Source: Schmidtea nova (lineage: Eukaryota). From it: DNA of 64,000 bases. The stretch lies in assembly GCA_044892505.1 (NCBI GenBank), contig CM097883.1:160642001-160706000 (forward strand), written 5' to 3'. The translations under genes were made by a program, and so were the position numbers. The number at the start of each line of letters is the position of its first letter. Position 1 is the first letter of the stretch. The notes under the pieces are model-generated. The model was not told where the DNA came from and searched no databases. It was given only the letters and a program-made list of their open reading frames with translations. Of this stretch, positions 3,692-27,958 are shown one piece after another.

Positions 3692-5978
3692 CTTTAGACT
3701 ATATAATATAACTATCCGTGTAATTAATGATTTTTGAACCATATTTCTTTAACAGTCCATTGACAATCTTGGTGTCTTTCTAGCATATCGTTTGGAAAAT
3801 TAATTAATTTATTGCTTTACTTTGTGCTTTATTTACCTCAATTTTCTGTTGTTTACTAAGCTTCAGTTTTGTTTAATTAGTGATTTTATGTTTATCACAT
3901 TTTTGTATATTTTTTGAGAATACCAATTATGTCTTTTTATTCCCTTCATCTACTCTATCCCTGATCTATTTTTCAAAATCTAAATCTGATTACCAGTTGA
4001 TTGTCAATTTTCCATTTTTGTACTTTCTCTACCGTCTTATGCACTTTTTTTATCCATTTGAACCTTTTAAGTTGTTTCTTGACACTGATTCTGTGTTATA
4101 TTAATATTTCGGCTCAGCATATTTTTAATACCCTGACATTTATTCTTCTTAACAAAAATTTCGTCCTCGAAAATAAAGCAATTTTCATTCACAAATTTAA
4201 GCATTTAAATTTTATAGAAAAAGATGAAAGATTTTTAATACTATAAAAAATATTCTCAATTGCAGTCACCATAAAAAGTAATAACGTTGAAATATGATTG
4301 AGAAAAAAATGTATAAAATAAAAATATATTAAATAAATTTTAGAAAATATTTTTATTTTCTTTATCGCTTTATTTTCTTTATACCCATAAACAATTAAAT
4401 TGACAGTTTAATTTCTCACTCAAATTTACAGCAGAAAAATATCAACTAATATAACGACTTGAAACCAAATTTTATATGAAATGCCAATCATTTGTCGTGA
4501 ACTCAGATTTTTTATTCGATTATACTCAAATGCTGGTAAAATTAAAAATATTAAATTACCGTCCTTGTTCTCGTTTCTGTTATCTTTATATTTTTGAACA
4601 CACAAAGATGAAATTTTTTACGTCGAACCAAAATCTCAAGTTTAACTCTGTGTTAAATGCTTTGTATCAGTCAATTTAAGGTTGAAATTTAGAAATGTTT
4701 ACAATTTATTTCTAACATATAAGATTGTATTTATGAATCATAAAATAAAATATAATGTTTCAAACCTTGCAGGATACATCATTCTGAAAAAATATTTTTA
4801 AATAAAATAAAATGAAACTATGAACCACTTGTTATATTTATATTGTTAGCTGTTTCCACTACTTTTTGACTTCTCAAATTTTACTTTTTTAATTCTAAAT
4901 CGTAAAATATAAATAATAATTAAAAAGCCTTTATCGTCAAAAAGCTTTCGAAATTTTCAATAATTTCAAAAGCTTTTCAATTAACTGCAATAAAATTTAA
5001 TCACGTCAATATATTTTCAAAATTTTGATTTCCTCTCACCAACTTATTACGCCGGGCTTATCGAAAAATATATTGGGTTTTATTTAATAAATAGGGAAAC
5101 ATGGTTTCTCATTGACACTTGATGTACTTTAATCAATAAATAACAAACTCTCAACGTATATTGAATAAAATAATATTCACAAATGATCCAATTATATATA
5201 CAGTAAATAAATCAATCTCTTAATCATAAAGTGATGGGACTATGCACAATGTAACAACAATTTTTGTCAAAAATAATCCCTGTCAATGATAACGAATTCC
5301 TTCGAACAATATTCATCTATGTTTCTATTGATAGGAAACATAAAATTTTCCCTTTAGTCAATTAATATTTTGTTATAAACATCTTTAATCCAATTCTTGT
5401 TTTTGTCATTAATTCTTTTTTAAAGATGGGATTGTTGGTGTATTGTATATTTCAAAAAATAAAACTTTGATCTATTTACTTCCTTGCGATCTTCCCTCTA
5501 TACTTGAGTTTACAACAATTCAAACATTTACTCGCTCGACTTTCTAGGGTTACAATACATACATAAAAATCTTACTGTCGCTGCACCCGTGAATTTCCCT
5601 AATACTTCACGTTGAAAATGTGCATCACAGCCGATCGCAAGTCAGCAGGTGAGCTCCTTAACAAGAACTACTCCTGACTTGTCACATCGTTCGAGTTCTT
5701 ACTGACCGATAGAAGGTCTTTTCACTCAAACTCCTCATCCAGTCGCAGGTCTCTTATTCATGGTGATCTTATTACTATAACTTAGCCTACTCTTCCTAGA
5801 AGTTGATGACGACTCTTTTAAATTAAATTGTTGGCGTGAATACTAAGATAAAATACAATTTTTAATATCAATAACTACAACGAATTTTATAAAAACACTT
5901 TTTATTAAAATCAACACAAATTCGTTATCTATACACGAAAATTACAATTCACAAAACAGGCTAATCTTGTTCTCCTCT

Positions 5979-6392
5979 TCATTGGCTTGGATCTGTGGGT
6001 ATTTTGTCCAACTCCGTTGCTAGCTTTTTCCTCAGTTGATGCCTTCGTTGTGTGTGGGATTTGCGACGATTCTTGGCCTTCGGCTTGACCATTTCCGTCG
6101 GTGTTTCTACTGTTCTCTCTATTACTTCCTGTACAGGAAACCATTTCTCTAAAGTCAATGGGCGGATTAAGTCGGCTAGCTGCACGGCTACGAAGTTCTG
6201 GGTGATAACTCGTCGACATTTGTTGGTTTCGATTCTGGTCGCTTCCAACTCGATGTATTGATCTTCGATTGTTTTCAAAGTCCTTCGCAGTTTCTCTCTT
6301 ACGACTTTCATCTCTGCCAGTGCAAAGTAACTTTCTTCTAACTCGATAATTCGTCGCTTCAGTTTTCCGATTATCTCTTTCTCTGTTGTCAT
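5979..6392 (-). CDS. Small coiled-coil/Arg-Lys-rich protein in a repeat unit (137 aa), unknown function
   Basis: Open frame. A homologous disrupted copy lies at 11647-12100 (QLADLIRPLTLEKW vs ELASKIRPMNLEKW; ELEATRIE vs ELSATRLE). Confidence 0.55.
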   Translation of the reverse strand: MTTEKEIIGKLKRRIIELEESYFALAEMKVVREKLRRTLKTIEDQYIELEATRIETNKCRRVITQNFVAVQLADLIRPLTLEKWFPVQEVIERTVETPTEMVKPKAKNRRKSHTQRRHQLRKKLATELDKIPTDPSQ

Positions 6393-9300
6393 GAGTTATC
6401 TTAAAATTATAAGTAATTTAATCTTTCTCCATCCTCTCACTTCTCCTCTCACTTCTCCTCTCAAATGTCCTATTTAACTAGTGTTTCCCTCAACCGAAAC
6501 CAAGATTTTCCTCTATACTCTATCACTCGCAATTACCAGCTCTCTTTACTCTTACTCTCTTTAGACGAATTCACCACTTCCTTAACTGTCTTTATCATAC
6601 TTAAATTTTTATGACAACAAATATAAATAATTAAAATATATAAATGAATAATAAAGAACACATTAATTAATATTTTTCTAATCCCACAATTACATTAACG
6701 TCAACACAAATCGATGAACTCGACACAATCTTCGTCAGAATCTATCTCGCACACTCCCGAGGGACTGTAAGGGGTATCCATTGATTGTTCTGCTGGAGCG
6801 GGACCTAATACAAATCGGCCGAGGCTTCAGAAATCTTCGTCAGGAATTGTTCCAGTATAAAAGATGGTCATCGACTATTTGCCTTGCTAGATCAGTCGGG
6901 ATGTTTTTCAACGGGAGTGCCCAAATCAGATAATTTTCCCTGGCTTCCGGATCCTGATATTCAGATCCCATCTCTCTAACGTCGCTCGATCTTTGCTGTA
7001 TGCATATGCTGATTCGTTCCACAATTTTTCTAATTGAAATTTAGATAAATATTTTTAATAATGCAAAAATGTGTCTCTAAGCAACTCATGGGTGTTGTGG
7101 GTCCCCCCGATATTGGATTATATATGCATCGTTCGTGTGTTCCTTTTTGCCATAACTCAATATTAAATACTCAAGTACTTCAGATTGTTATGTTTTATTG
7201 TCGGTACAATTTTCATTACTAGAGTTTCCCTGAGGATCATTTAATTGGTTTAGTAAATCATCGTCAAGTGGTTACATGATCACTTCAAACGACACTCGAT
7301 CTCGTTCTCCACTATTTACGGCAATACTCTACTCCGGCTGTTTCCTTTCTCCTTATGACTCTCGCATGTCTCAAGTGCGTTGCACTCATATTTCAATTAA
7401 CACTGTATTGGCTCAATTGTACTCGCTCGTCACTCAATATTTCCACTGTGTATCAATTCACTTTAAGTGGCAATTCAGGATTCATGTCTATTAGAATTTC
7501 TCTCCAGCGCTCTCGTGCACGTGTAGATTTAGCTGTAAAATTAAGCACTCGAGAAAACTCACAGTCTAACAAGGACAAGGAGTGGGTAAATTGGCGGGAT
7601 TCAATTTATCGTCAATTACCAAAATAATTAAAATTTAATTTATTATGCGGGAGTTTCTTTTCTAGAAGGATTGTTTGAATAAAAATAAGATTTTGTCAAT
7701 ATCGCTAACGCTCGTTAACCCCTTAGTAAATCATAATTTCGATTATTGCTAACCAGATGGTCGGGTTGATAAAATTCCATTCGTGCTACGGGTTCTCGTA
7801 CTCTCTTTTACTTACTAGAAAAATGGAAAGGCTTGATTCATAATCAAATATCTATAAAAAATGTTTCTTATGAGTGAGTAATTTCAGCTTAACTTTAATA
7901 ATACTATTCATTAGTTTCAACTACGGGGTAGCTTACTACTGCTCCGAATTACTCTGGCATTCATCGTGGTACAAAACAAAATCATTAGGAATCTGCAGCG
8001 CTCCGGTTTCGTCATTCACCCCTGTCTGTAACGGTTAATTTATAAAAAGGTCTTTTACGGAGAAACAGAGAGAGATCCCCGGAGAGTCGACAATCCCTAT
8101 GATCGCCTAAACTCTCGCATTATCTATATCATTAGTGAATATAATAACAAAATACTTTGATGTTCATAAAACTTTTATTAATAGAAACAAAACTACTTAC
8201 AAGCTTCTTCCGAAAAGATGATCAAATAAAGATTCTTCCCCCGAGTGTTGTATTGGGTAAACTTCCGAAAAGTGAATTATGTAGTTAACTGTATGAATTG
8301 ATCTTATTACGGGTATAAATGACTTTTTCAGTTAGTGTAAATGACATTGCAAAGCTAACCTGATCGCTTCCTGATATACTAAATTCAGCGCTCAGGCAGC
8401 CAATGAAAGCTAGAGATTGTCCAAAACAAAAGTAGGGCATTTAGGTAGATTTTGTAGATTAAATCTGAAAGAAAATTTTAGTAACATTAAGGAATATGAT
8501 AATGATCTGAGGAAAACCGTTTCGAAAAAAGTCAGTCAAATTTTCCGATCATTAAAATTAATTAAAAATGAATCGAAAACGGAAAATAAGAGTTTCGTAT
8601 TCAAAGGAAATGAAAAATATAGCTCAATTTATCAATCGACAGCGATATATAGACAGCAAGAAATTTAATATAACAAAGTCACTGAACCAGCTCATAATAA
8701 GCATTTTATAACAAAAGTCTGTGGATATTTGAGCAGAATCAAATATTATTGATCATGAGTCGTTTTAAAGAACTGGAGCTGAATAAAAAATTTCTTAAAC
8801 TTAGAGGAAGTAAATGTAGATTACTTTGCGTAAATGGTTCGCCAATTAACATGGTCGATGAATCTACTATTAACGTGAAACTTGATAAATTTGAGAGACC
8901 ATTAAAATTTAAGGTTGATTGAGTATATTTTTCCTAAAATGATAATATAAATTAGATCTATGAAAACAAACAGAATTCGAATTGTGATAGAAAAGGATTG
9001 TATTTTTATAGATATTAACGGATTCCGTTGGTTTCTAAAATAAAATCTAACGTATCGGAAAACTAAGAAGTACTAATCAAATGAGTCGGGATGTGAGTAC
9101 GTATAGTGAAAAGAATCAGTATTGTTTCCTATGTGTCATTTTATGTGAAACTTTAGTTTTAAATAGTGATAAATAGTATTTTGTATGGGGATCATTTAAT
9201 TACACTGACTTTCGAGTTAAATTAGGAGTTTTTGTTGGATATAAAGATAAATTGGCAGAATTTGATATACTAGTTGTCAGTTCATCGACTCCGCCGAAAA

Positions 9301-12979: not shown

Positions 12980-14062
12980 TGTTCGGTTCGTATCAGTGGT
13001 TTACGACGAACACAGAAAGTATATATATTTATATATATTTGATTTGATTATCGGACTCCAAACGATAATCCGCTTATATAATTATAAATAAAATATATGT
13101 TTTAGGTTGTGTGTAAAGAAAAACAAGAACTAATTATTTTTTAATAAAATGTATTGTGAAATATGTATATCGATGTACAATATAATAAAATAGCTGCAAA
13201 AGCAAAAGTTAGAGAATCGGTTATACAAACCGTCCTAAGATGTTTAAGAACGAAAGCTGGACCTAAAAGGCTCAACAGCTCCGACTAACTGAAAGGACAC
13301 AAGATGAGGGGTTTCCCTGTAGTTTAACCGCGATAGTGACAACCCAGAATTGGTTGTCACTGTGACTTAATAATTTTCCCTTCTGATAATTTATTATGTA
13401 ATGACTTTACTGAAGGGGAAAAATAGTAATACAACTATTTCCCCGTGATCGATTTATAGAATTTTAAAAGAAACAAAACTAGAAGATTTACCAGCTAATA
13501 AAGATTTTTCCGATTTCGGGAAATTATCACAAATGAAATTCAAGCTAAGCTTCTCGTAATACTTCTGCCGTAAAATTAATTTCTCCAATTCACAAATTTG
13601 TCAAACTAAAATTCTAAAATTCACTTCGGTAAAATTTATGTTCTGTAAACACTTATGTTTCTCTCTCTACTTCTGTCAAAATTAATTTCTGTTTCAACTG
13701 ATTTTGCAATCAGTTTATATACAAATTATTTTCTCTCATGTAGGTCTAGACGACCACCTATTACTAACTACGTGTAGGTCGAAATTGACCTTACAAAATA
13801 TTACTTTTAAAGTAATTTATTATTACTATATATATCTTATTATTACTATTTAAATTTCTTATGTATTTATTTATTACTATATTTATTATATATTATTTAA
13901 TTATTACTATATTTAATCTATATTTATTTATAGTAATTATTTATTTACTATTACTATTTATCTATTTATTTATAGTAATTCTTAATTGCTATTTATATTT
14001 ATTTATTTACTTATAATATTTAATTACAAAAACCCGAGATCCCTTGATCTCGAACCCTAACA
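12980..14062 (-). repeat. 3' LTR (1083 bp)
   Basis: Direct repeat of 26876-27958. PPT is adjacent. Confidence 0.97.
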
Positions 14063-14064
14063 TG

Positions 14065-14074
14065 TCTTCCCCCT
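14065..14074 (-). promoter_or_regulatory. Polypurine tract
   Basis: Minus strand AGGGGGAAGA, 2 nt before the 3' LTR. Confidence 0.85.
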
Positions 14075-14357
14075 AACAAGATTTTCGTCCCGAAAATTAA
14101 AGCGGAAAAGACAAGAAGGTTAAGCAGCCAAAAATAAAAAAAATAAAACAACAACACATGCATATATACATAGAATGCACTTGGTCAAAATGAGTCTCAT
14201 AAAACACATAATACATAATTAATGTTGATCACAATCGATATCAAATAATAATTGTCTGTAAGCGTTGGATTGTTGATCACATAGCCGAAGTGCTAATTGT
14301 TTGATTGATAGTTGTCATAGCTTATAGCTAGACCTTGGATTGAACGTAGCAGAAATG

Positions 14358-16394
14358 CTAGTTATCCTTTGCGAATAGGTTTTGAGCTGCTCTCTTGCGA
14401 ATATGCGCTTGCTCGTTCTTGATGCGATCTTCCACTATATCTGGTCTATAGCTGACCACCAATGTTTCGCGTGTTTCGACTTCCTTATATACCAAAGACG
14501 AAATCACGTATGATTTTCCGTTGGCCTCCAATACGCCATAGTAAGGGAAGTTTGAAACTGATGATTGGTGTACCGGTTTCCCGTCGTATTCTTTTATCCG
14601 AGGTACCCAATTTCTCTCTGGTCGCTGCCAAAAACTAGGGTCTTCATTGTCCAAATCCTGGGGTATCTTTGCTGAATTTCCCGTTCCAACGAAATCCCCT
14701 TCTCTTATAATAATAGGTTCGCCCTTAACCTCCGGAATCTGTTCCATATCGGGTGGGATGAATGCTGTTTCGATTAAATCTTTGTCTTCCGTCGAGATGG
14801 GATTTGGTACTTTCTTTTTGATCTTTAGATCTTGTAACCTTACAACAGGTTCTTGACTTTTCTTTGGGGGTGACTTCTCCACTGAAGTCAATTTTTTAAA
14901 AGTCTTAGTAACTTTTTCCAAGAGCTTGTTCTCTTTCTTTGGTGGATTTTCTGGCACGATCTTTGTAATTGTACGGCTGTCTCCGTGTAAAGTTAAACGC
15001 ATCTCTGTTTGCTCCTCACCCTCGCTTTCGCAGGTGGCGTAATCGTCTTCATCAGCTAAGGATATAGCTGGAGGGGATAGTGATTCTTCCTCAACTATCT
15101 TTTGTAATTTGGTTGATAATGGTTGTTCCTGGGGTAAGCTCTCAATAGCTTTCCTTTTACTCGTTTCTTGTGGCTGTATTGTATGAACCATTTTGACTTC
15201 TGATGTAATTGTCCCACTACGATTACCTGGGGTAATGTCATCTACCCAAACTTCTCTCAGTTTAAGGTAAATATTACGTGTCGTTTCCACGTCATTTTCC
15301 GTTTTCAGATCTGAACGGTTTAGTTCTTCTTTTTCGAGAATTGACTTTGATAAATACGCGAGTCGATAATGTCCGTTACATTTCTTTAGTTCTCTCGCTT
15401 CCAGGCATTTTGCTGCTCCTAGTTCTCTAATGCCCAAAACTCGTTGAGGGTGTAACTGGACTGCTTCCAAGAAATCGTTGACTTGGAGACCTATTAGGAT
15501 TTTCCCATCACATAATTTTCTAATACGGTCTGCGCAATCCTCTCCATCAAATTGTCCGATGATTTCTTTTTCGGTCATACCATGCGCGTGCGATTGGTAA
15601 TGTTTGACCTGGTTTCTGGGTGTAACCACCGTGTTTAGTATTAAATCACCACAGTAGTTTGCTATCGAAACAGCCACCAAAGCTGGCTTTAAATAATCTC
15701 GCAAAGTTGCGTAATGCGCTGCAACAAATATTGACAATCTATCTTCTTGATTGGGGTGCAGATTCATCCGAACAAAGGATTTGAATGATTTGAGATCGTT
15801 CTCATTCACATTATAGGTCCAGGCAGGTTCATTTTTCCACAATGATTGCACTGCCTTGCTAGGTTCCAAAATCTCTAATACCACAATAGTATTATATCCG
15901 TCACATTGGATGGAGATATTCTTTTCTCTGCCATCTCCGTTACTAATTTCTAGAGTTGATTCTGGTTGAAGTAGGATGGGTCCTGTGGCTCCTGCCATGA
16001 AGATTGTAAAGGGTTTATTGATCGCGTGAATCAGGAGATGGTGAGTAAATGTTGATCTGTTGAATTCCGCCATGTGTTCAGTCAACCGGGTGTTCTCACG
16101 GCTGGTGATTGTGACTATGCACATTTGTCTCTTAGGCGATCCGAGAAACTTAAAATTGTTCGGGATGCCGGTGCAGTGCCCGTAATACCAATAGCGACGA
16201 CCTTTCCGTGCCTCTGCGGATATCGCTTTTTCGATGTTTCGATAAATCAGTTTTTCCTTCTGTATTGTTTGCACATCGATAGTGCTATAACGCTGCTTGT
16301 ATTGTGACACTTGATGCTTCATATCTGAAAGAAAAATAATTAACGTTAATATCAGATATACTGATATGCCAATATTGGCTAAAAAGGAATGCAT
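14358..16394 (-). CDS. Accessory ORF2 of the LTR element (678 aa): degenerate AlkB-like domain, degenerate REX4/ISG20-like DEDDh exonuclease domain, charged low-complexity region
   Basis: Long open frame between the polyprotein and the 3' LTR. ALVAVSIANYCGDLILNTVVTPRNQVKHY..HG...KILIG...IRE..L aligns by eye to the REX4 fold. The true start may be the ATG after the splice-acceptor-like TTTCTTTCAG at ~16325. Confidence 0.8.
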   Translation of the reverse strand: MHSFLANIGISVYLILTLIIFLSDMKHQVSQYKQRYSTIDVQTIQKEKLIYRNIEKAISAEARKGRRYWYYGHCTGIPNNFKFLGSPKRQMCIVTITSRENTRLTEHMAEFNRSTFTHHLLIHAINKPFTIFMAGATGPILLQPESTLEISNGDGREKNISIQCDGYNTIVVLEILEPSKAVQSLWKNEPAWTYNVNENDLKSFKSFVRMNLHPNQEDRLSIFVAAHYATLRDYLKPALVAVSIANYCGDLILNTVVTPRNQVKHYQSHAHGMTEKEIIGQFDGEDCADRIRKLCDGKILIGLQVNDFLEAVQLHPQRVLGIRELGAAKCLEARELKKCNGHYRLAYLSKSILEKEELNRSDLKTENDVETTRNIYLKLREVWVDDITPGNRSGTITSEVKMVHTIQPQETSKRKAIESLPQEQPLSTKLQKIVEEESLSPPAISLADEDDYATCESEGEEQTEMRLTLHGDSRTITKIVPENPPKKENKLLEKVTKTFKKLTSVEKSPPKKSQEPVVRLQDLKIKKKVPNPISTEDKDLIETAFIPPDMEQIPEVKGEPIIIREGDFVGTGNSAKIPQDLDNEDPSFWQRPERNWVPRIKEYDGKPVHQSSVSNFPYYGVLEANGKSYVISSLVYKEVETRETLVVSYRPDIVEDRIKNEQAHIRKRAAQNLFAKDN

Positions 16395-16508
16395 AAATCT
16401 CGATTTACGGGATCTACTTATGCTGTAAGTTAATGCTACTCGGAGCTCAACAAGATTATAGATTTTAATATATATATAAATACAAATATGTGATTTTATC
16501 TGTAATTG

Positions 16509-19500
16509 TCATAATCTCGTCATCATAATCCCATCAACCGACTCAATAGCCTGGCTGAAGAATAATTTCATCCAAACTCCCATTGCTATCAATGTAGTGA
16601 TCATAGCTAATACTGCTGACGTAATAATCCATACCCCAACGGGTAATTTTCCCAAGTGAGAAATGGGGTTTACTTCATTAATTTCACACTGACAACTTTT
16701 AATATAGCTTTCTGTTGATACTGTTGGTTTTACCATTTTCAATCCTTTCAATCTCTGCCATATTGCAGGATGAATGACGTAACTCTCTTTCCGTATCAAG
16801 GATGTGACTGATTTCGTTGTCGTCGATGATTGTGGTAATTTCAAAGAGATTACTTCATAAAATACCTCATTCCATTCATCGACTCCGGGCTTTTGTTTAT
16901 TATTCATATAAGTGATATGAGCTTCCCACTCCACTGAGCTGTTCCACTTGAGATTTTGTTTCTCAATATCTTCATTTAGCCACAATTCTTGCACTATTTC
17001 CTTGTCGGAATGGATTTCTATCCTTACCCTATCCACTCCTTGTTTTGGTTGGCTAAAGGTAATCATACCTTGTTGGATATTTATTCTAACTTTCCTTTTG
17101 AAATCTGCTGTCTTCAGCTTCCATTGTGACTTTGAAAAATCTGACCATCGTCCAAACATAAAATGTTGAACAAGTATATCTAACAGATATTCCTTTTCTG
17201 CTCGTAAGTCCTTTATGACTTTCACTCTTGTGTTTGAATCCAATGTAAAATGGAAACAACGTCGTTCGCAAAACGAGAACTTGAATTTGGTATCATTTTC
17301 AGCTAATGATATTATCCTAAATTCCTGAAAAGATCTTCTGAATGCGAGATCTTGGATTTGAACCGCTGTTGGAACAAATGTCTTTACACAGGATATGAGG
17401 CAACTTATTATTACCAAAAATGTAACTGATTTTGGCACGCCTCTTGATCGTAATGGATATCTGTCTGAGACTGATTCTGACCCTTTATCCTCCTTTTTCT
17501 TAATCGGATCTTTCTCCGTGACCGCAACTTTCTTGCATCTGTTAGCATGTACCATTATTGGTTCAGCTTTTCTATTTGCTACTAATTGCAAGATTAAATT
17601 CGTGTCTGTGGTTCTCAAAACCTCATATGGTCCTTTGAAGTTTCTCATTAATTTAGGTGATAAGCCCTTTTTATTATAATGGCTTTCCAACATCACCTTG
17701 TCTCCAACTAACATGCCATGTCCTTTGGCTTTCTTATCATGATAATCTTTCGACGCTTCCTGACTGAATTTTATACTAAGACCTGCTTTTGTCCATGCTT
17801 CTTGCATTCTTTCTCTCATTTCCATGAGATAATCCTCTTGGTCTAAATACTGCGTTGCTTTTGGGAAAAACAACAAATCTATAGGCATTTTACTTTGCCT
17901 TAAATACATGAGATAGAACGGCGTTTGTCCCGTACCCTCATGAACAGCATTTCTGTATGCGAATAGGCATGATGGAATATGTATATCCCAATCCGTTTGC
18001 CCTGAATTTACGTATGATGCTAGCATATTTGCGAGCGTTCCGTTAAATCTCTCTACCAATCCGTCTGTTTGTGGATGGTATGGAGAGGTATTCAGTTTTA
18101 AAATGTCGAAATAATCATTTATTCCTTTTAACAGATTACTCATGAAATCTGCTCCTCTATCTGTAAGTAGTTTTGTAGGTACTCCATACCTAAAAACAAT
18201 TTGCTCTACGAAAATCCTGGCTATCGTATCTGCCTTGTGATTCGGTATCGGATAAGCCTCCGGCCATTTCGTCAAGTAATCGCAAAATACCAATATGTAT
18301 TTGTTACCACTATTTGATTCTTTGAATGGCCCTAAAACATCCATTGCCGTCATTTCCATCGGTGTGGATGGTACTGGCATTGGTTTCATTGGCACATGCG
18401 GTTTCTTCCCCGTATTTCTCCTGGTGATACAGATCTTACATGTCTGACACCATTCTTGTACGTCTTGTTTGATTGTCGGCCAGAAATATTTCTGCTTCAA
18501 CCTTGACAATGTTTTCCTGGAAGACAAATGCCCTCCCAGTGCTCCATCATGATATTGTAACATCAAGGCTTCCCGATATTTCTTAGGGACCATTATGACA
18601 TTATCCCTTACGTCTACATATTTGACTAATCCTTCTTCTAGAATAAATTTGTCTCGATTTTTCTCCCAATATTTATTAAATTCCGTCGGTATGAACTTTG
18701 CTTCTAAAGCCTGTCTGATTTGGTTTATCTCTTCATCCGATTGTTGTGCTGCCATTAAATCCGCGAGTCTGTTTGCTTCTCTTGTAAGTGCGAAGATTGT
18801 TCCTTCTAATCTTCCTTCTTTGACGTCTTCTGCTTCATCACCTTGGTCCATTCGAGAAAATGCATCTGCATTCCCATTTTGGTGTCCTTTACGGTAATGT
18901 ATTTCGATATCGTATGGCTGCAAGATCAATGCCCATCTAACCAATTTTGATGTATCCATAGTATGCTTTGTTAACCACTGTAATGGTCTATGATCCGTAT
19001 ACACAATGATCTTTCGACCCCATAAATATGTCCTGAATTGGTGTATAGCATACACAATTGCTAATGCTTCTAATTCGATAACTGCGTAATTCTTTTCATG
19101 TGGTTTTAATCCTCTGCTAGCATACGCTATTGCATATTCGTCTCCTAGGTCATCTCTTTGACCTAACACAGCACCAATACCCCGAGTGCTGGCGTCCGTC
19201 ATGACCAAAAATTGTTTCTCAAAATCTGGAAACCGTAATATAGGAGGTTCCACGAGCATCCTCTTTAGCATATCAAATGCTTCCTGATGTTCTTTTCCCC
19301 ATACAAATTTGACATTTTTGCCCTCTAATTGTGTCAGAGGAAATGCTATTGCCGAAAAGTTCCTGATGAACTTCCTGTAATATCCCACTAAGCCCAAAAA
19401 CCCTTTTATATGTTTGACTGTCTTTGGCTCTGGAAAATTCTTTGCTTTCTCAACATTTGCTGGATCTGGCTTTACTCCATCCTTCGAGATAATGTGACCG

Positions 19501-22500
19501 ACATAGACTACTTCTGATTCGGCCCATTTACATTTTGATGGTTTTACCTTAAGATTTGCATTAATTAACCTTTTGAATACGTCCTCTAAATGTTCTAAAT
19601 GCTTTTCCAAATCTGGAGAAAATACTATGATGTCATCTATGTATACCATTGCATGATGAACATCCATTAACATTAGATTCATTGCTCTTTGAAACGTTGC
19701 TGGCGCTCCTGTGAGACCAAATGGCATTACTGTATATTCGAAGTGTCCCAGGCTTGTAGAAAAAGCCGTAATTGGTATTGTCTCCTCTTTTAACTTGATT
19801 TGGTAAAATCCCTTCTGAGCATCCATCACTGAAAAATATTTTGAATTTCTCATACGACCGTAGATGTAATCCAGTAATGGTAATGGGTGACTATCCTTGC
19901 AAGTTGCTTCGTTTACCATTCGATAGTCGTTGCATAGTCGTACCGTTCCATCCTTTTTAGCCACTACTATCATTGGTGACTGGTATGGTGATTTACTATG
20001 CCTGATGATGTTATGTTTTAACATCAGTTTTACCTGCTTATCGACAGGTTCTTCCAAGCTAAACGGGATTCGATACGGTCTCAGCTTTATTGGTTTAATA
20101 TTGTTAAGAACAATTTCATGTTCCAACAAGTTCGTCTTTCCCAGATCATATTCGTGCTTGGCGAATACTTGATCATATTTTCTTAACAACATGTTTACTT
20201 GAATATTCTCTCTTCGTGAAAGAGCTTTACTATTTGCCGTTGGCGCATCATAGTACTCGATGTCTGGTTCTCTATTCTCTGCCTTCACTGTCAGGACAGA
20301 TCCCCCAATCGGTAATTGATCCGACTTTGATACTCTCCCTACTCTTGTATCTGGGTACAATTTTAATGGTTTTATATCTAAATTGGCTACCCGAATTGGT
20401 ATTCTGCCATTTTCAACATTACCAACGCTATGCGTAATTGGTAGATTATATTTTGCTGAAAACCTTTCATCTGGTTCGAATACAACTTCTCCTTCCAACT
20501 GTTCGCTAGTGGACACGAAACATACTGTTTCTGCTCTAGGTGGTATTATCATCGTATGGTCGATGAAAACTGTATCATCATTATAAACTTTTCTTTTCTT
20601 ACCGATTGATCTAACTAACAATCCGGTAGCACAGTCAAATACGACTCCTTTTAATCTTCTTAAAAGATCCATTCCTAGTAGACATTCCACTGGACAAGTT
20701 CTCATGACTATAATATCATGACGAAATTCTTGGTCACATAGCTTGATGTTACAAGCTAGAGTACCAATAATATTCAATGATGTGCCTGTAGCACCTGTTA
20801 ACGAAACTCTTGAGGTTTCCATTGATTCCAATTCTTTTTGATTTAATAGTGTTGCCTCTATGATAGTGCCGTCTGCTCCTGAATCTATCACTGCATTAAC
20901 TGTGTGTCTGTTTATTTTTATCTTTATCATGGGTTTCTTATCCAAGTTCACCCCATTTGCCATCAAAATAGTAGCATGCGTTATCCCGATGGTATTTGCT
21001 CTGAATTTCTCTGCTTCATCTTGTTCGGTATCGCTCAATTTTGGATTATATTCCTTGAATTTAGCTTTTATTGCTTCTAACGACTCGATAGGATACAGTT
21101 TCCCTTCATTTTCTAACGATAATGATATGCTTTTACCTGTTTCTCGAGCATCTTTGTCGAGAATTTGTTGATGTTTAGAAATGTACATTTTGTTTCTTTG
21201 AATTGTTAAAGCATAATTTAGTTTGCCCTCTCCTGATGTCTTTTGAAACTCTGGCGATTCCCCCTTTGGCGCTGTTGGTAAGCTTCTAAGATATGGTAAT
21301 TGCATATATCTTGGATTTCTTTTCAATCTAGGCGATGCTGTATTGATTGCAAATTTCTGGTCTGCACTATCGTATTCATCTTCTGAAATCATACTTTTGT
21401 CGAAAATCTGTTTTGTCGCTTCGTAAGGTGGTTGATAATCCCGATATTTCATTTTCCTTAATTGATGATTCGGTTTTTTATTGTAGTTTCTTTTTCGACT
21501 TCTACTTTGTCTCTGAACTGTATTAAGAGAGTCTCCAATACCTCCTCCTTCCGAATTGTTATCGTCCCGATAACTTGTATTACCCTCCATTTCGATTCCA
21601 ATAATCTCGTGTTTTACCAAGCTTCTCTGTTTGATTGTCTTTATTTCTTTACGATGATGTTTAAACAATGCAAATTCCGCACACATAGGACACAATCCTA
21701 GTATCAACTTCCAAGACCATCCACCGATTTTGAATATACTGTATGTGGAGATTAATTGTGTTATTATTAACTTTAGAATTACGAATATTGCATATATTCC
21801 TGAGCAGCCTGCCACGAAAATACCAAAATTGGTAAACCTTCCCCATATTTTCATCATCACATTTTTAGCTGCTTCTTTATAATGATCTGGACCGAATAAT
21901 AAATTGTAATCTGGTCTCATTTCGTTTGCTTGGTAAATTGTTCTTATGATTTCAGTGATACCTCTTTCTCTTACTTGAGGGAATAGCAATGTCTGTCTTG
22001 CCTCCTCAATGTCTGCTGAAGTGTAAATTCCTCCTTGTGATAATTCATCGAGTGATTTAAATTCCATGTTTTCCTCGAGTTTCGTGACTTCCAATGTTTC
22101 CACCTTTCTATTAGATGGTTTTCTGTCAGGTAATGAGATCCATCTATCATTTACCTTGTATAACGGTGATATTGCTGGATTGCAAATTGAAGGTTGAGGC
22201 TTTTGTTTTTCATCCAAAAGTCTCCTCGTAACTGGCATTACAAATCGTATTTTGTTTTGATATGACACTGGTAATTCTAGAGTACATTCGTTATACCGTG
22301 TTAATTGTACCTCTATGGGTTGACATTGATAGCTGTATATAGCTTCCCCCATAATTCTGCCAAACATTCCATCTTCTAGCAACATAGGTGTCACTAGATC
22401 CGGATTCACGATTGATATCGCTAACCGATTTCGAACTATTTCGCGATTTAGTTTGCAATCATTGAGTATTACTTCCTGATACATTTCCTGCATTTGTCCT

Positions 22501-25500
22501 TGCAGATCATGATATAAATAATCTATTTTATTATTTATATAGTTCGTGATTTTGATATCCTGGCTGTGAATATTCTTGGCTTTTTGGATAAATGTTTTTG
22601 ACAAATATAATCCTTTATAGTTGGTCTCGTACACCACTTTTCCGCATTTTGTCTTCTTATCTTTTCTGACAAATCTGATTGCATCTTTCTTATCTTCTGA
22701 TACTAATACTAGAGGTGTGATTTCCTCACTAATATCCTCTTTTTGCTGTTTGTTGATCCTTTTCAACGTCTTTTCTTTATCCCAAATTCTTTCTCTTTTG
22801 GGTAAATCTCGATACTTTGTCCCGTTCAACTTATGGAAATTAATTTTCTTTAGTAATGACAATTCGCAATGGTCTAGTATTTGATCGTATAATAATGTAA
22901 TGACCCCTGTTCTGCAGCTTCCAAATTTCGCAAGGCACTGAGGGTGTGCCATTAATCTACCTGATAATACATCGAACGTCCCTTCGTATTCTCTTAATTC
23001 GATTGAATAGTCCTCAATATCTACGACAAAACTTACCAACTCCGATCCGCGAGTTTTCTTTCTTCCCGTACAGGTACCATCTGATCCGATTGATCCTCCT
23101 CGTGTAATGGTTACTCCCAGTGTTTTTCCTACTTCCGCGGCGATGGTTACCTCGTTATCGATTCTTAAAGTACCTTTTCGAAAGGCGTCTAGACAATCCT
23201 CTGGCAATATGTTGACAGGTCTAGGTATTAGAGTGGCTGATAGAAAAGCAGTATAGCTGTGTGAACCACAATAATATTCAAATGTCGCTCTTTGGACTCT
23301 ACATTCTCTTATCTTAGTTCTGAAAAATTCACTTTCTTGGTAGACATAGTATTCGACCTTTTCTCCTGTTTGGACTTTCTCTGGATATGCCTCTTTGCAC
23401 TCAATTGCATCTACGAGCGAATATATCCGAGCTAACTTTGGATCACTGCAATCAAACGCTGTCATTGTGTTTGTCTGTTTCATTATCCCCATCATTACTA
23501 AAAACATTAATATCATATTTGTCATATTCCCCATTCCTCCATTTCCGAGGTGGTTGTTATTCATAGCCTCTTCCACAAATTCATATCGTGGTTTATGTTT
23601 CTCCTCTTCCCAGAAATTATTTTCACTCATCCACGTTCCGAGATAATGCTCCGTTATCTCCGTGATCTGGTCTATTTCTCGATTAATAAGCTTCTTCTCA
23701 TTGCCTGCGCGGGCTAAAGCATCTTGAATCAACATAGATAATGCTGTCAATATTTTTCCTTTAGATAACCCATCTTGTATGAGTGTCTCTAACATACTCT
23801 GTATCTCGTTTTGCGATACCCCTTTAGGTAATCTCCTCATAGTCTTCGCGATTGACTGTGTCACTTTATCCACTTGAATTCCTTTAATCCGAGTGATCTG
23901 CCATTCTGGCTTTAATATTCCTATGATCTGTTTTAATCTCTTCCATGTCAGAGATTTTTCTGGTATATGCACACCTTCGTCTCTCATATCAACATCCCTG
24001 GCTATTCCTGACAGGGTTTTCATCTGAACCTGTTTAATGGTTTCTTGATTTAATTGCTCCGTTGGTGGAGGTTTCATTTGATCTTTCCTAGGTCTTCCTC
24101 GTCTATCTTTCTTTGTCTGCCATGCTGGCCTGATAGTTTCTACCGCCTGAGAAGTTGAAGCTCCCACGTTAGTTTCCTCATTATTGAGTCTGATTTCCTC
24201 TTCTCCGTGATTATCGGCATCGATATCTACATTAAATGGTTGTGTTTCGACGTTACCAGTGACCATTTCATCTGGTAACCGTAATGCTGACCATTGAGAT
24301 TCAGGTGGCTCTACGGGAATGATTGCTACCGTTGTTGTTTCAAAAGGTAGACATCCCACATCTACTAAATATTCATCATCATCTACTTGCCCTCCATGAA
24401 TCATAATCAAGAATATACCGGTAGTCTGCCCAGTATCTATTAAATCCTTTCTCAACGTTATTACTTTGCTAAAACAACGATATAACCTCGTCATGGGTTC
24501 TTTTCCTGATATTCGAATGTCTAAAGTTATCATGCCTTGTCGGTGTGCTTGATGACGTATTGCTGTTCCATTTTTCCTCATTAACATTTTTATTTCCGTT
24601 TGAAACGAACTAGTTTCCTTTACTACAGGTAGTAGAATAGGAATTATACTCTCCAATGATTCTACTGGTATGCGCAATACCAACATCCAGTCTAATATTT
24701 CCTTGATTGTTTCTCCATCCCTCGGAGATTTCTGCAACTCTATCTTCAGACGTTGCTCTATTTGTTGGACTTCCTCCAACTGTGCAATTTCCATTTGTGT
24801 GAGTAGAAACACACTGTCTTGATCCACTACTGGGACCGATATTCCTGTCAGTTTCGTTGTGAGTTTCGTTACCATTCCTGGTAATACACCATTTTGTAGT
24901 AGTGTTTCCCCAACTACTAACTTTTCTCCATATAAATAAAAATCATATCTATTATGTTTCAATTTCATCATTGTATCTGACAACTTGTCTGTTCGACATC
25001 TTACATTCATGTCGATGTTAAACTCCTGCTCCTGAGGAAGTTTTATGTTTAAATGCGAATCCTGAAGATCCCATTCATGCTCCATTGCAGTTCCTATCTT
25101 TCGTAGGATTTTATGTATGTCGCTATGATACCTTGGATCATCTTCGACCTGAGATATTAATTGTAATATCTTTCCAATTTCACTGTTCTTGATATCACCT
25201 TGTGATAATTTCTCTAATTCTCTAGTCAGTCTCTGCTGATACTCATATCTGGAATCCACCAGTTTTAAACATTTTGCTAGGGTATCTGACCCTTTCTTGG
25301 CCTTTGTTTCCTTGAACAAAGCCTGGTCGAACTCGCTCAGTATGGTACTCATACTGGGTTCGTCATCATTATCAGAATTTGTTTCTGATTCTATTACCTC
25401 ATGATTCTCGCTGCTGGAATCCATGGGTTCACTATTTCCTTGCTCATCTGTGTGAGCATCATGATTTTTCTCAGCTGAAATCATCAAAACTGTTCCTTGC

Positions 25501-26774
25501 CCAACTGTGTGAGCATCATCGCTTTCCTCAATGGGATTCATTATAACTGTTCCTCGCCCATCCATGTGAGCATGATTTTTCTCAGCTGAAATCATAAAAA
25601 CTGTCTCTTGCCCAACTGTGTGAGTCTCATTCTTTTCCTCTATTGTATTCATCAAAACTGTTCCTCGCTCATCTGTGTGAGCATGATTTTTCTCAGCTGA
25701 AATCATAAAAACTGTATCATCTCGATCCATTAGCCGTGCTAATCGATTTTTCTCCTCCTGGATTTCCATTTCCAGTTGTTGCAAATACGTCAATTCTTTA
25801 TCGTGATTGACCATGAACGTAGTTTTTGGCTTGCTGACATTACCACTATTGGTAGTCCTATTATTCGTATTATTACTCTGATTTTGAGGACACGACCTCA
25901 GAATATGCCCGAATTTTCCACATCCGTGACATTTTATCTTTCCTGATGAATTAACATCATCCCTTTTAATATTAAAATTCCCATTCGTTGGGAGATTCCT
26001 AACTCTACAAACTGAAGCAACATGCCCTCTGCGTTTGCATTTATCACACTGCAAGTTCGTGACTCTACAGTTCTCAACACTATGATTATTCATACCACAT
26101 TTAGTACACTGAATACTCCTACGAGTATCAGCTACCTTCTTACTGTGGCAATCTTTTGATATGTGCCCTTTCTTATGGCAGTTAAAACATTCAATGGCTG
26201 GCTTCTCATTATTTATCATAAATGATGTAGCTTTTTCTAAGCTGCTTTCGATTACGACAGCTTTTCTTGTTAATTCCCAAAAATCATCTCCCGTGTGGAG
26301 AATCAATGCATTTCTCATTACATTTGTGAATCCAGCTAATAATTGGTCTTTAACCATAGCTTTAGTTGCATCATTCCAGGTAGTTCTGAGCCCAAACGCT
26401 CTTTCGGCTAATAACAATAATTGGTAGGAAAATTCTCCTACATGTTCATTTGCATTCTGCTTCCTGTGATAAAATTGTTGTCGGAAAATTCTACTTGAAT
26501 CTCCCGGTAATATTCTAGCTGTTAGTGATTCTCTCATCTTTTCCCATGTAGCTGGTTTATCTGCTGCTGGTAACGCCATAATATCATTGTAGTTTTCCCT
26601 TGCCATACCCTTAAGGTAAATTGGCAGTCTTTGTATCATTATCGCATCTGGATACCCATAGGCCTTTGCCATCTGATAATATTCTGACATAAACTCCGGA
26701 AATTCCCCTGGATCTCCGCTAAATGCCTTGACAGGTAAAGCGGGATATCTAGCAAAAACATTTTCCTCAACCAT
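16509..26774 (-). CDS. Gag-glycoprotein-Pol polyprotein (3421 aa): Gag/4xCCHC, ubiquitin-like modules, chuvirus-like glycoprotein, aspartic protease, RT, RNase H, integrase, C-terminal FN3-like membrane protein
   Basis: Open frame. CX2CX4HX4C x4. Protease VIDSGA. RT motifs MPFGLTGAPATFQR and YIDDII. RNase H motifs TDAS, ELEALA and TDHRPL. Integrase HHCC, MDVLGP, TDRG, DGLVERFN and GPY. Confidence 0.97.
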   Translation of the reverse strand: MVEENVFARYPALPVKAFSGDPGEFPEFMSEYYQMAKAYGYPDAIMIQRLPIYLKGMARENYNDIMALPAADKPATWEKMRESLTARILPGDSSRIFRQQFYHRKQNANEHVGEFSYQLLLLAERAFGLRTTWNDATKAMVKDQLLAGFTNVMRNALILHTGDDFWELTRKAVVIESSLEKATSFMINNEKPAIECFNCHKKGHISKDCHSKKVADTRRSIQCTKCGMNNHSVENCRVTNLQCDKCKRRGHVASVCRVRNLPTNGNFNIKRDDVNSSGKIKCHGCGKFGHILRSCPQNQSNNTNNRTTNSGNVSKPKTTFMVNHDKELTYLQQLEMEIQEEKNRLARLMDRDDTVFMISAEKNHAHTDERGTVLMNTIEEKNETHTVGQETVFMISAEKNHAHMDGRGTVIMNPIEESDDAHTVGQGTVLMISAEKNHDAHTDEQGNSEPMDSSSENHEVIESETNSDNDDEPSMSTILSEFDQALFKETKAKKGSDTLAKCLKLVDSRYEYQQRLTRELEKLSQGDIKNSEIGKILQLISQVEDDPRYHSDIHKILRKIGTAMEHEWDLQDSHLNIKLPQEQEFNIDMNVRCRTDKLSDTMMKLKHNRYDFYLYGEKLVVGETLLQNGVLPGMVTKLTTKLTGISVPVVDQDSVFLLTQMEIAQLEEVQQIEQRLKIELQKSPRDGETIKEILDWMLVLRIPVESLESIIPILLPVVKETSSFQTEIKMLMRKNGTAIRHQAHRQGMITLDIRISGKEPMTRLYRCFSKVITLRKDLIDTGQTTGIFLIMIHGGQVDDDEYLVDVGCLPFETTTVAIIPVEPPESQWSALRLPDEMVTGNVETQPFNVDIDADNHGEEEIRLNNEETNVGASTSQAVETIRPAWQTKKDRRGRPRKDQMKPPPTEQLNQETIKQVQMKTLSGIARDVDMRDEGVHIPEKSLTWKRLKQIIGILKPEWQITRIKGIQVDKVTQSIAKTMRRLPKGVSQNEIQSMLETLIQDGLSKGKILTALSMLIQDALARAGNEKKLINREIDQITEITEHYLGTWMSENNFWEEEKHKPRYEFVEEAMNNNHLGNGGMGNMTNMILMFLVMMGIMKQTNTMTAFDCSDPKLARIYSLVDAIECKEAYPEKVQTGEKVEYYVYQESEFFRTKIRECRVQRATFEYYCGSHSYTAFLSATLIPRPVNILPEDCLDAFRKGTLRIDNEVTIAAEVGKTLGVTITRGGSIGSDGTCTGRKKTRGSELVSFVVDIEDYSIELREYEGTFDVLSGRLMAHPQCLAKFGSCRTGVITLLYDQILDHCELSLLKKINFHKLNGTKYRDLPKRERIWDKEKTLKRINKQQKEDISEEITPLVLVSEDKKDAIRFVRKDKKTKCGKVVYETNYKGLYLSKTFIQKAKNIHSQDIKITNYINNKIDYLYHDLQGQMQEMYQEVILNDCKLNREIVRNRLAISIVNPDLVTPMLLEDGMFGRIMGEAIYSYQCQPIEVQLTRYNECTLELPVSYQNKIRFVMPVTRRLLDEKQKPQPSICNPAISPLYKVNDRWISLPDRKPSNRKVETLEVTKLEENMEFKSLDELSQGGIYTSADIEEARQTLLFPQVRERGITEIIRTIYQANEMRPDYNLLFGPDHYKEAAKNVMMKIWGRFTNFGIFVAGCSGIYAIFVILKLIITQLISTYSIFKIGGWSWKLILGLCPMCAEFALFKHHRKEIKTIKQRSLVKHEIIGIEMEGNTSYRDDNNSEGGGIGDSLNTVQRQSRSRKRNYNKKPNHQLRKMKYRDYQPPYEATKQIFDKSMISEDEYDSADQKFAINTASPRLKRNPRYMQLPYLRSLPTAPKGESPEFQKTSGEGKLNYALTIQRNKMYISKHQQILDKDARETGKSISLSLENEGKLYPIESLEAIKAKFKEYNPKLSDTEQDEAEKFRANTIGITHATILMANGVNLDKKPMIKIKINRHTVNAVIDSGADGTIIEATLLNQKELESMETSRVSLTGATGTSLNIIGTLACNIKLCDQEFRHDIIVMRTCPVECLLGMDLLRRLKGVVFDCATGLLVRSIGKKRKVYNDDTVFIDHTMIIPPRAETVCFVSTSEQLEGEVVFEPDERFSAKYNLPITHSVGNVENGRIPIRVANLDIKPLKLYPDTRVGRVSKSDQLPIGGSVLTVKAENREPDIEYYDAPTANSKALSRRENIQVNMLLRKYDQVFAKHEYDLGKTNLLEHEIVLNNIKPIKLRPYRIPFSLEEPVDKQVKLMLKHNIIRHSKSPYQSPMIVVAKKDGTVRLCNDYRMVNEATCKDSHPLPLLDYIYGRMRNSKYFSVMDAQKGFYQIKLKEETIPITAFSTSLGHFEYTVMPFGLTGAPATFQRAMNLMLMDVHHAMVYIDDIIVFSPDLEKHLEHLEDVFKRLINANLKVKPSKCKWAESEVVYVGHIISKDGVKPDPANVEKAKNFPEPKTVKHIKGFLGLVGYYRKFIRNFSAIAFPLTQLEGKNVKFVWGKEHQEAFDMLKRMLVEPPILRFPDFEKQFLVMTDASTRGIGAVLGQRDDLGDEYAIAYASRGLKPHEKNYAVIELEALAIVYAIHQFRTYLWGRKIIVYTDHRPLQWLTKHTMDTSKLVRWALILQPYDIEIHYRKGHQNGNADAFSRMDQGDEAEDVKEGRLEGTIFALTREANRLADLMAAQQSDEEINQIRQALEAKFIPTEFNKYWEKNRDKFILEEGLVKYVDVRDNVIMVPKKYREALMLQYHDGALGGHLSSRKTLSRLKQKYFWPTIKQDVQEWCQTCKICITRRNTGKKPHVPMKPMPVPSTPMEMTAMDVLGPFKESNSGNKYILVFCDYLTKWPEAYPIPNHKADTIARIFVEQIVFRYGVPTKLLTDRGADFMSNLLKGINDYFDILKLNTSPYHPQTDGLVERFNGTLANMLASYVNSGQTDWDIHIPSCLFAYRNAVHEGTGQTPFYLMYLRQSKMPIDLLFFPKATQYLDQEDYLMEMRERMQEAWTKAGLSIKFSQEASKDYHDKKAKGHGMLVGDKVMLESHYNKKGLSPKLMRNFKGPYEVLRTTDTNLILQLVANRKAEPIMVHANRCKKVAVTEKDPIKKKEDKGSESVSDRYPLRSRGVPKSVTFLVIISCLISCVKTFVPTAVQIQDLAFRRSFQEFRIISLAENDTKFKFSFCERRCFHFTLDSNTRVKVIKDLRAEKEYLLDILVQHFMFGRWSDFSKSQWKLKTADFKRKVRINIQQGMITFSQPKQGVDRVRIEIHSDKEIVQELWLNEDIEKQNLKWNSSVEWEAHITYMNNKQKPGVDEWNEVFYEVISLKLPQSSTTTKSVTSLIRKESYVIHPAIWQRLKGLKMVKPTVSTESYIKSCQCEINEVNPISHLGKLPVGVWIITSAVLAMITTLIAMGVWMKLFFSQAIESVDGIMMTRL
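17560..20930 (-). other. pol: Pol region: protease (~20620-20930), dUTPase-like linker (~20335-20575), RT (YIDD at 19632-19643), RNase H, integrase with GPY/F motif
   Basis: Canonical Ty3/Gypsy motifs in PR-RT-RH-IN order, with catalytic residues apparently intact. Confidence 0.95.
21660..23525 (-). other. env: Envelope glycoprotein domain, chuvirus (Jingchuvirales)-like class III fusion protein, inside the polyprotein
   Basis: Hydrophobic signal MILMFLVMMGIM, then TAFDC. Cys-rich ectodomain with YINNKIDYL, CKLNREIVRNRLAIS, GEAIYSYQCQPIEV, CTLELPV, FVMPVTRRL and GGIYT, which I recognise from chuvirus-type glycoproteins. TM segment FGIFVAGCSGIYAIFVILKLII. Confidence 0.8.
25888..26774 (-). other. 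gag: Gag region: capsid-like domain plus four CCHC zinc knuckles
   Basis: LPIYLKGMA...RKQNANEHVGEF gag-like motifs. Knuckles CFNCHKKGHISKDC, CTKCGMNNHSVENC, CDKCKRRGHVASVC and CHGCGKFGHILRSC. Confidence 0.9.
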
Positions 26775-26854
26775 GTTATTCGCAAGTTTTACTTTCGAAC
26801 GAGTTGCTAAAGCTATTTTGTATATATGAAAATATGCCCACTGATAATAATTGT

Positions 26855-26872
26855 ATCACGTCGGGCTCACCA
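26855..26872 (-). promoter_or_regulatory. Primer-binding site, tRNA-Trp type
   Basis: Minus strand TGGTGAGCCCGACGTGAT, 3 nt inside the 5' LTR. One mismatch from the canonical animal tRNA-Trp PBS TGGTGACCCCGACGTGAT. Confidence 0.88.
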
Positions 26873-26875
26873 AAA

Positions 26876-27958
26876 TGTTCGGTTCGTATCAGTGGTTTAC
26901 GACGAACACAGAAAGTATATATATTTATATATATTTGATTTGATTATCGGACTCCAAACGATAATCCGCTTATATAATTATAAATAAAATATATGTTTTA
27001 GGTTGTGTGTAAAGAAAAACAAGAACTAATTATTTTTTAATAAAATGTATTGTGAAATATGTATATCGATGTACAATATAATAAAATAGCTGCAAAAGCA
27101 AAAGTTAGAGAATCGGTTATACAAACCGTCCTAAGATGTTTAAGAACGAAAGCTGGACCTAAAAGGCTCAACAGCTCCGACTAACTGAAAGGACACAAGA
27201 TGAGGGGTTTCCCTGTAGTTTAACCGCGATAGTGACAACCCAGAATTGGTTGTCACTGTGACTTAATAATTTTCCCTTCTGATAATTTATTATGTAATGA
27301 CTTTACTGAAGGGGAAAAATAGTAATACAACTATTTCCCCGTGATCGATTTATAGAATTTTAAAAGAAACAAAACTAGAAGATTTACCAGCTAATAAAGA
27401 TTTTTCCGATTTCGGGAAATTATCACAAATGAAATTCAAGCTAAGCTTCTCGTAATACTTCTGCCGTAAAATTAATTTCTCCAATTCACAAATTTGTCAA
27501 ACTAAAATTCTAAAATTCACTTCGGTAAAATTTATGTTCTGTAAACACTTATGTTTCTCTCTCTACTTCTGTCAAAATTAATTTCTGTTTCAACTGATTT
27601 TGCAATCAGTTTATATACAAATTATTTTCTCTCATGTAGGTCTAGACGACCACCTATTACTAACTACGTGTAGGTCGAAATTGACCTTACAAAATATTAC
27701 TTTTAAAGTAATTTATTATTACTATATATATCTTATTATTACTATTTAAATTTCTTATGTATTTATTTATTACTATATTTATTATATATTATTTAATTAT
27801 TACTATATTTAATCTATATTTATTTATAGTAATTATTTATTTACTATTACTATTTATCTATTTATTTATAGTAATTCTTAATTGCTATTTATATTTATTT
27901 ATTTACTTATAATATTTAATTACAAAAACCCGAGATCCCTTGATCTCGAACCCTAACA
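26876..27958 (-). repeat. 5' LTR (1083 bp)
   Basis: Starts tgttcggttcg and ends gaaccctaaca on the + strand. Same length as 12980-14062, with no mismatch seen by eye. PBS is adjacent. Confidence 0.97.

Follow-up and report, generated by a model that had tools for sequence, protein, structure and literature searches.

Captured DEDDy exonuclease and AlkB genes are already known from long terminal repeat (LTR) elements, and most of the accessory genes carried by retroelements of invertebrates are still unassigned. Juno and Vesta, two LTR elements of bdelloids, carry downstream of pol an ORF3 exonuclease of the DEDDy type with intact sites (PMC5408684). Gypsy elements of Phalaenopsis have an ALKBH5-like ORF2, described as an active N6-methyladenosine (m6A) demethylase and read as a means of counter-surveillance in PMC9289625, which also cites the AlkB domains of plant RNA viruses. 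Errantiviruses of the GAG-ENV-POL kind with an envelope of the HSV/gB type are reported from Nematoda, Bryozoa, and Platyhelminthes (PMC13524379), and Cer1 of C. elegans makes, from a spliced accessory mRNA, the protein CERV, which has a pseudo-enzyme domain and is needed for export of the genomic RNA (PMC10309623). Here we analyze an element of the GAG-ENV-POL kind in Schmidtea nova, contained in a 64,000-nucleotide stretch of contig CM097883.1 (assembly GCA_044892505.1, positions 160,642,001 to 160,706,000; hereafter the window), and its second open reading frame, ORF2 (14358-16394). ORF2 very probably joins two enzyme folds that lack their canonical sites and is under selection, and it defines a real, unreported, and deeply diverged family of accessory proteins with a confident two-domain model. 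All features of the element lie on the minus strand.

Two predicted folds of ORF2 and their family

An initial annotation, made from the sequence alone, had described ORF2 as a double pseudo-enzyme that combines a REX4/ISG20-type exonuclease with an AlkB-type fold. We found the open frame of 678 amino acids with every motif quoted there, and the exonuclease call is supported by both sequence and structure. With the single protein, phmmer matches human ISG20L2 (7yw5) with an E value of 5.4e-5 over aa 238-385, while Pfam gives no match above its cutoff. A profile of 56 family sequences matches ISG20L2 (1.7e-30), ISG20 (3.3e-20), and, as third best, SDN1 (1e-16), and PF00929 is detected in 27 of the 56 members. 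AlphaFold2, run on the alignment of these sequences, gave a model of aa 40-392 with pLDDT 94.6 and pTM 0.90, which was compared with 48,161 solved chains; a single-sequence prediction with pLDDT 30.9 was left unused. The C-terminal domain of the model (aa 220-387; 15234-15737) aligns with ISG20 at Z 18.3 (rmsd 2.9, 161 residues aligned), the next row being at Z 14.3. As modeled, this domain has the DnaQ/RNase H-like DEDDh fold, with the ISG20/REX4 branch nearest. Its catalytic columns read A225, H227, F308, L363, and D368 in place of D-E-D/E-H-D, so that one of five residues is retained: the first D-x-E and the His are missing, as annotated, and the ExoII acid is gone as well. The noncatalytic residues P259, R260, H271-G272, D283, and G321-I-R323 are conserved in dead members.

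The AlkB-type call had been ranked below the exonuclease call, and this order stands. The AlkB-type call is supported by structure but not by sequence. The segment of aa 40-180 (15855-16277; model residues 1-141) aligns with ALKBH6 at Z 11.4 (rmsd 3.6, 132 residues aligned), followed by ALKBH7 (10.8), Ofd2 (10.6), OsALKBH1 (10.6), ALKBH5 (10.1), and E. coli AlkB (9.6). Prolyl hydroxylases come close behind (viral, Z 10.3; bacterial, Z 10.1), within about 1 Z of the top four AlkB-family matches, and 13 members of the 2-oxoglutarate (2OG)-Fe(II) superfamily stand in the top 50 rows, with Z scores of 9.4-11.4 over 125-134 residues of the predicted model. Foldseek gives the same picture, with PHD2, ALKBH7, and small cupins intermixed (3fjs, TM-score by target 0.65); these cupins do not occur among the top 50 rows of the comparison with solved chains, which leaves a cupin relationship conceivable. 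The N-terminal domain of the model is a 2OG-Fe(II)-type double-stranded beta-helix with an N-terminal helix and extra strands. AlkB is its nearest branch in that superfamily, with membership unproven and no clean separation from the prolyl hydroxylases.

By sequence, this half has no Pfam match, PF13532 included, and the family profile matches no oxygenase; with two AlkB-family proteins of the host it scores about 0 bits. A comparison with a host AlkB-family protein gave an hhalign probability of 0.1% and a BLAST E value of 0.15, and an ESM Atlas search with the N-domain of ORF2 or of the protein P0011 gave no usable match. The word RRYWYYG, quoted in the annotation for the AlkB-type alignment, proved not to be conserved in the family. 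The lack of a complete HxD...H triad extends from the window copy to all 62 two-domain rows of the family alignment, none of which has HxD/E together with the distal His (HxD/E alone occurs in one, a His near the distal strand in nine). By strand order, the AlkB His positions hold the aliphatic L104 and I160, and conserved instead are P78-N79, H123 (56/62), and E/D174 (60/62). The C-terminal RxxxxxR of AlkB has no counterpart: a conserved pair of Arg residues is absent from the last strand, which terminates in the conserved Glu174. Both folds were thus recovered by profile or structure search, and the model predicts that the beta-helix packs against the exonuclease fold.

An HMMER search of 1.84 billion representatives returned 108 matches, and a word-index search with aa 60-385 returned none. 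Strong matches are unnamed (no name in 10 clusters, and none informative among 17 further matches), and the weak tail consists of cellular proteins of the REX4-like kind in which the N-terminal domain is missing. The alignment has 129 rows, of which 101 span the exonuclease domain: 70 have all five DEDDh residues, with ExoII accepted as D or E and about 21 cellular REX4-like proteins included, 24 have none, six have one, and one has two. The 62 two-domain rows comprise 35 with all five nuclease residues, 21 with none, five with one, and one with two. The family is sharply two-state, with the nuclease site either complete or lost. Relatives with intact catalytic residues, which the initial annotation proposed to look for, exist for the nuclease half, whereas none keeps the AlkB triad. 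From the aligned residues, the AlkB half looks dead family-wide and the nuclease half only in some lineages, which suggests that the two losses differ in age.

Both nuclease-complete and nuclease-dead types occur in the host genome. A genome search with an intact-site relative gave 84 matches, and seven of eight fetched loci read DEEHD, the eighth being the dead locus L033. [quoted passage not shown] A metagenome scan found five loci, all DEDHD or DEEHD, and the two long ones also lie behind gB-PR-RT-RH-IN; a scan of IMG/VR gave 19 pattern matches, none of them confirmed. Integrase identity to the window element tracks the relatedness of ORF2 (80-85% in dead sisters, 63-71% in intact families), as expected from joint descent.

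Locus L033 (G000:C1:264552110-264553141) has an open ORF2 of 601 aa whose nuclease site was separately lost (DTKFK), and the fetched stretch shows no env or pol of the element clade; it is an orphan, a nonautonomous copy, or a domesticated gene. Two metagenome elements, L054 (3833-4639) and L055 (2995-5217), each show two protease-like matches between env and RT. The family member P0024 is 1113 aa long, with a C-terminal extension of 822 aa.

Loss of the nuclease site and selection on the dead form

In a tree from all columns, most dead members cluster together, which by itself suggests a single origin. Trees with the catalytic and neighboring columns masked do not bear this out and place dead members in several positions. 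The masked tree (49 of the 62 rows, 13 near-duplicates being dropped) has five changes between dead and intact labels, at least three of which are forced by starred branches. Since cellular and early-branching rows are complete, we read these changes as losses, and the nuclease site appears to have been lost at least three times within the family. The window ORF2 falls in a dead clade of 11 rows (support 96), and since its branches are about one change per site long, the loss in this clade is old.

The initial annotation had further proposed that the protein was retained after losing its catalytic residues, and this is borne out by comparison of 44 ORF2 copies (the 24 with the best scores and 20 of lower rank whose frames are open). 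Among changes shared by at least two copies, we counted 20 synonymous and four replacement changes in the AlkB-like domain (ratio of nonsynonymous to synonymous changes per site [pN/pS], 0.05), 34 and one in the exonuclease domain (0.01), 40 and 18 in the stretch that follows it, which is probably disordered (0.12), and 16 and one in the C-terminal module (0.02), a part of the protein not used to rank copies. Changes found in a single copy have pN/pS of 0.22-0.30. Pairwise comparison of the exonuclease domain among eight diverged dead copies showed saturated synonymous sites in 23 of 28 pairs, at protein identities of 43-71%; the five unsaturated pairs have dN/dS ratios of 0.10, 0.16, 0.19, 0.22, and 1.18. 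With so few replacement changes, and with saturated synonymous sites beside a conserved protein, the dead ORF2 protein is maintained by strong purifying selection.

The element and the expression of ORF2

The only long open frames of the window are those of the element: one spans 16509-26855 and has 3448 codons, and the other, at 14358-16508, has 716. The first contains the ORF1 polyprotein (16509-26774), in which Gag, with its zinc knuckles, is followed by a fusion glycoprotein of the gB type, by protease, RT, RNase H, and integrase, and by a tail that carries two hydrophobic segments. The envelope glycoprotein (PF24664, E value 4.2e-89; 21633-23453, bounds approximate) is encoded in frame, in gag-env-pol order. 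The 5' LTR (26876-27958; TG...CA) and the 3' LTR (12980-14062) are identical over 1083 bp, and a 4-bp target duplication, TTTG, lies outside both. A primer-binding site (26856-26872) and a polypurine tract that adjoins the 3' LTR (14064-14076) are also present, as are the PR-RT-RH-IN order and a class III glycoprotein between gag and pol. These features mark a young and intact member of the Ty3/gypsy group with the GAG-ENV-POL layout and a gB-type env. Its primer-binding sequence has 987 exact matches in the genome, compared with none for the reversed control, showing that the element group is very abundant. The primer may be tRNA-Trp, and a pattern search for a tRNA gene matching the site found none. 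Of 126 genome matches to aa 62-388 of ORF2, 79, the window copy among them, reach 98% identity or more along almost the full query, which is a lower bound with 122 of 2005 candidates scored. Some old ORF2 copies in the genome are broken.

The ATG of Met1 is at 16394 and the stop codon at 14358-14360. Relatives begin at the equivalent of Met25, so the true start is probably Met25 (16322), with a product of 654 aa. A candidate splice acceptor, a pyrimidine tract with CAG (16325-16345), ends two bases ahead of Met25, and its sequence is unchanged across the 44 ORF2 copies; several further loci have, by eye, an AG just before the ATG. The hydrophobic residues 1-24 would be explained as the pyrimidine tract of the acceptor read as coding sequence, and an N-terminal signal or membrane anchor at aa 1-26, a stretch that overlaps this tract, is a probable artefact given where relatives start. 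We also considered read-through from ORF1, which lies in the same frame with one TGA between, and do not favor it, since sister elements have in-frame stops ahead of ORF2. Judging from these sequence features, ORF2 is likely expressed from a spliced subgenomic RNA.

Between the two folds lies an ordered linker that continues into an N-terminal extension of the nuclease (aa 181-219; 15738-15854) with a family-specific S-F-x-R motif. Behind the nuclease follows a charged, Pro/Ser/Thr-rich stretch of about 190 residues (aa 388-575; 14670-15233) with the basic clusters KRK and KKK, the one taken above as probably disordered. The conserved C-terminal module of about 95 aa (aa 580-675; 14370-14657) is common to six or seven diverged dead sister copies and has no match in Pfam or the PDB (best E value, 0.11). 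A family-wide C-terminal beta module was seen by eye, and a leave-out profile failed to recover the link to the tails of intact members.

ORF1 contains two further regions without a Pfam match. After the integrase, about 300 aa between two hydrophobic segments (aa 3139-3167 and 3401-3434; 16554-17441) resemble a second membrane protein, and about 630 aa (23460-25352) separate the Gag zinc knuckles from env. Three to five imperfect repeats of 54-57/111 bp lie at 25403-25715. Elsewhere in the window are two remnants of DNA transposases, a hAT dimerization domain fragment (E value 9e-17; 29426-29899, plus strand) and a DDE_1 fragment (1.6e-30; 54696-55193, minus strand), and two open frames of 222 aa (57087-57755) and 162 aa (5929-6417), both on the minus strand and without a Pfam match.

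Proposed function and comparison with known systems

The shared function of the family is probably binding, because cutting was repeatedly dispensable and the fold was not, which suggests a role common to intact and dead members. Since the nearest relatives handle RNA 3' ends and the family function outlasts catalysis, we tentatively read ORF2, with a probability a little short of even, as a nuclear, noncatalytic RNA-binding accessory factor that would shield or escort the unspliced RNA of the element, with CERV of Cer1 as its functional precedent. An ancestral element would have taken up a nuclease of the REX4/ISG20 type and joined it to an AlkB-like domain that was already noncatalytic. Many descendants would have kept the complete nuclease site, and at least three lineages, including that of the window, would have dropped the site and kept the protein. 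Made from a spliced subgenomic RNA, the protein could enter the nucleus via the basic motifs in its tail, and its emptied nuclease groove and beta-helix could bind single-stranded RNA or RNA 3' ends. The unspliced genomic RNA might thereby survive host 3'-5' decay or small-RNA attack and then be exported.

Several observations weigh against this RNA-binding role or the evidence it draws on. The net charges of the AlkB-like and exonuclease domains are +2 and -2, whereas intact members average +4.8 and +1.7. The 15-row clade of the window keeps acids at D307 (D/E in 10/15), E366 (11/15), and D368 (9/15), and these may confer residual metal binding. Placement of the AlkB metal-site windows followed strand order in the general AlkB topology rather than a residue-level superposition. 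The strict pyrimidine filter was passed next to the start in only three of 19 scored loci, selecting copies for their high protein scores or their open frames pushes pN/pS down for aa 62-388, and the dead pair with dN/dS of 1.18 (dS 0.05) departs from the others. The tree of losses carries long-branch warnings.

The near-neutral charge of the window copy would suit a protein decoy, in which the two dead folds imitate host proteins of the REX4/ISG20 or ALKBH kind and titrate away the partners or regulators of these proteins, while element RNA is left unbound. Both folds do resemble host RNA enzymes, and the C-terminal module is equally conserved without being a known nucleic-acid fold. However, identity to host-type enzymes is only 10-19%, low for a surface mimic, and the conserved noncatalytic residues are largely family-specific rather than REX4-like, so we consider a decoy fairly unlikely. 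A DNA-stage factor, with intact members trimming and dead members capping the 3' ends of reverse-transcribed DNA to shield it from host exonucleases before integration, would be in keeping with AlkB folds, which bind DNA or RNA, and with DEDDh folds, for which single-stranded DNA is a further substrate (the structural matches include ExoX, TREX1, and RNase T). By both sequence and structure, however, the nearest relatives are the RNA-processing ISG20L2, ISG20, SDN1, and PAN2, and it is not obvious how the product of a separate ORF would get into the particle; a role at this stage is unlikely.

The clade acids and the conserved residues of the beta-helix could also mean that the protein is rewired rather than dead, with a noncanonical nuclease site at D307, E366, and D368, Maelstrom being a known case of such a site, or with His123 and Glu174 as a new metal site. 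About two-thirds of the 15 rows have acids in the three columns, and His123 and Glu/Asp174 are found in 56 and 60 of the 62 rows. Nevertheless, where both ExoI acids and the general-base His would be expected, the residues are varied or hydrophobic (Leu in 12/15), the substitutes differ among dead lineages, and His123 and Glu174 may be structural, which leaves rewiring rather improbable. SDN1, the third-best profile match, trims Argonaute-bound microRNAs, and ISG20L2 prefers uridylated microRNAs, so host piRNAs or siRNAs might have their 3' ends degraded by intact members and sequestered by dead ones; this similarity lies in the shared DEDDh core, and we regard such a suppressor as very unlikely. 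That ORF2 is a captured gene in neutral decay would fit the lost catalytic residues and the broken old copies. This reading is largely refuted, and scarcely credible, given pN/pS of 0.01-0.05 for shared changes, with 0.02 in the module that played no part in ranking, and synonymous sites that are saturated while the protein is conserved.

RNA binding by ORF2 may belong to a broader pattern, which we put forward as a doubtful extension: a whole clade of envelope-bearing invertebrate retroelements would carry a counter-defense gene of its own, assembled from an ISG20/REX4-type nuclease of a host and an AlkB fold repurposed to read RNA ends or modifications. Cutting and noncutting versions would exist, with at least three flips from enzyme to pure binder and both multiplying in one genome. 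If so, these elements provide a natural pair for testing how small-RNA or RNA-decay surveillance is overcome by a retroelement, and the family may expose counter-defense against host RNA surveillance. Strong selection acts on both complete and incomplete versions within one host genome, and this natural pair of intact and dead forms makes what a pseudo-enzyme keeps after losing cutting directly testable.

Among described elements, the errantiviruses of PMC13524379 share the Ty3/gypsy pol order, the gB-type glycoprotein between gag and pol, the LTRs, the primer-binding site, and many recent copies; the main text of that paper uses none of the words exonuclease, AlkB, or accessory and describes no downstream ORF2. 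The giant planarian gypsy elements Burro/GYPSM1 likewise have env in frame between gag and pol and carry accessory cargo. However, they are 30 kb long with MATH, BIR, ankyrin, and BCL2 cargo, and the available text names no exonuclease (PMC6431247), whereas the window element is 15 kb long with one ORF2. Juno and Vesta resemble it in having a 3'-5' exonuclease gene downstream of pol, and their D-to-E change (DEED) recurs in 24 of the 35 intact members of the ORF2 family; their exonuclease, as described, is RNase D-like, DEDDy, and intact, with no AlkB-like partner (PMC5408684), whereas ORF2 is of the DEDDh REX4/ISG20 type, fused, and dead in several lineages. The Phalaenopsis elements share an AlkB-fold accessory gene within a Ty3/gypsy element, and theirs is described as a recent capture, recognizable by sequence and active (PMC9289625). 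In contrast, the AlkB-like domain of the window is detectable by structure alone, has no triad in any of the 62 rows, and forms a fusion with a nuclease fold. Our literature search, which covered neither Repbase nor subscription journals, found no DEDDh/REX4-type ORF in LTR elements and no AlkB-exonuclease fusion.

CERV is a functional analogue only, with a spliced accessory mRNA, a candidate nuclear signal, and a pseudo-enzyme domain; its pseudo-GTPase fold is unrelated, and export, shown for CERV (PMC10309623), is proposed for ORF2 by analogy, the Rev/CERV-like features of ORF2 being confined to the acceptor-like site and the basic clusters. Human ISG20, ISG20L2, and REX4, together with ALKBH6 and ALKBH7, are the best structural matches of the two domains of ORF2, but these are cellular enzymes with complete sites and are never fused together in any returned row. 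ISG20 is an antiviral nuclease, and a retroelement that holds a relative of it and repeatedly disarms the nuclease would be a surprising reversal.

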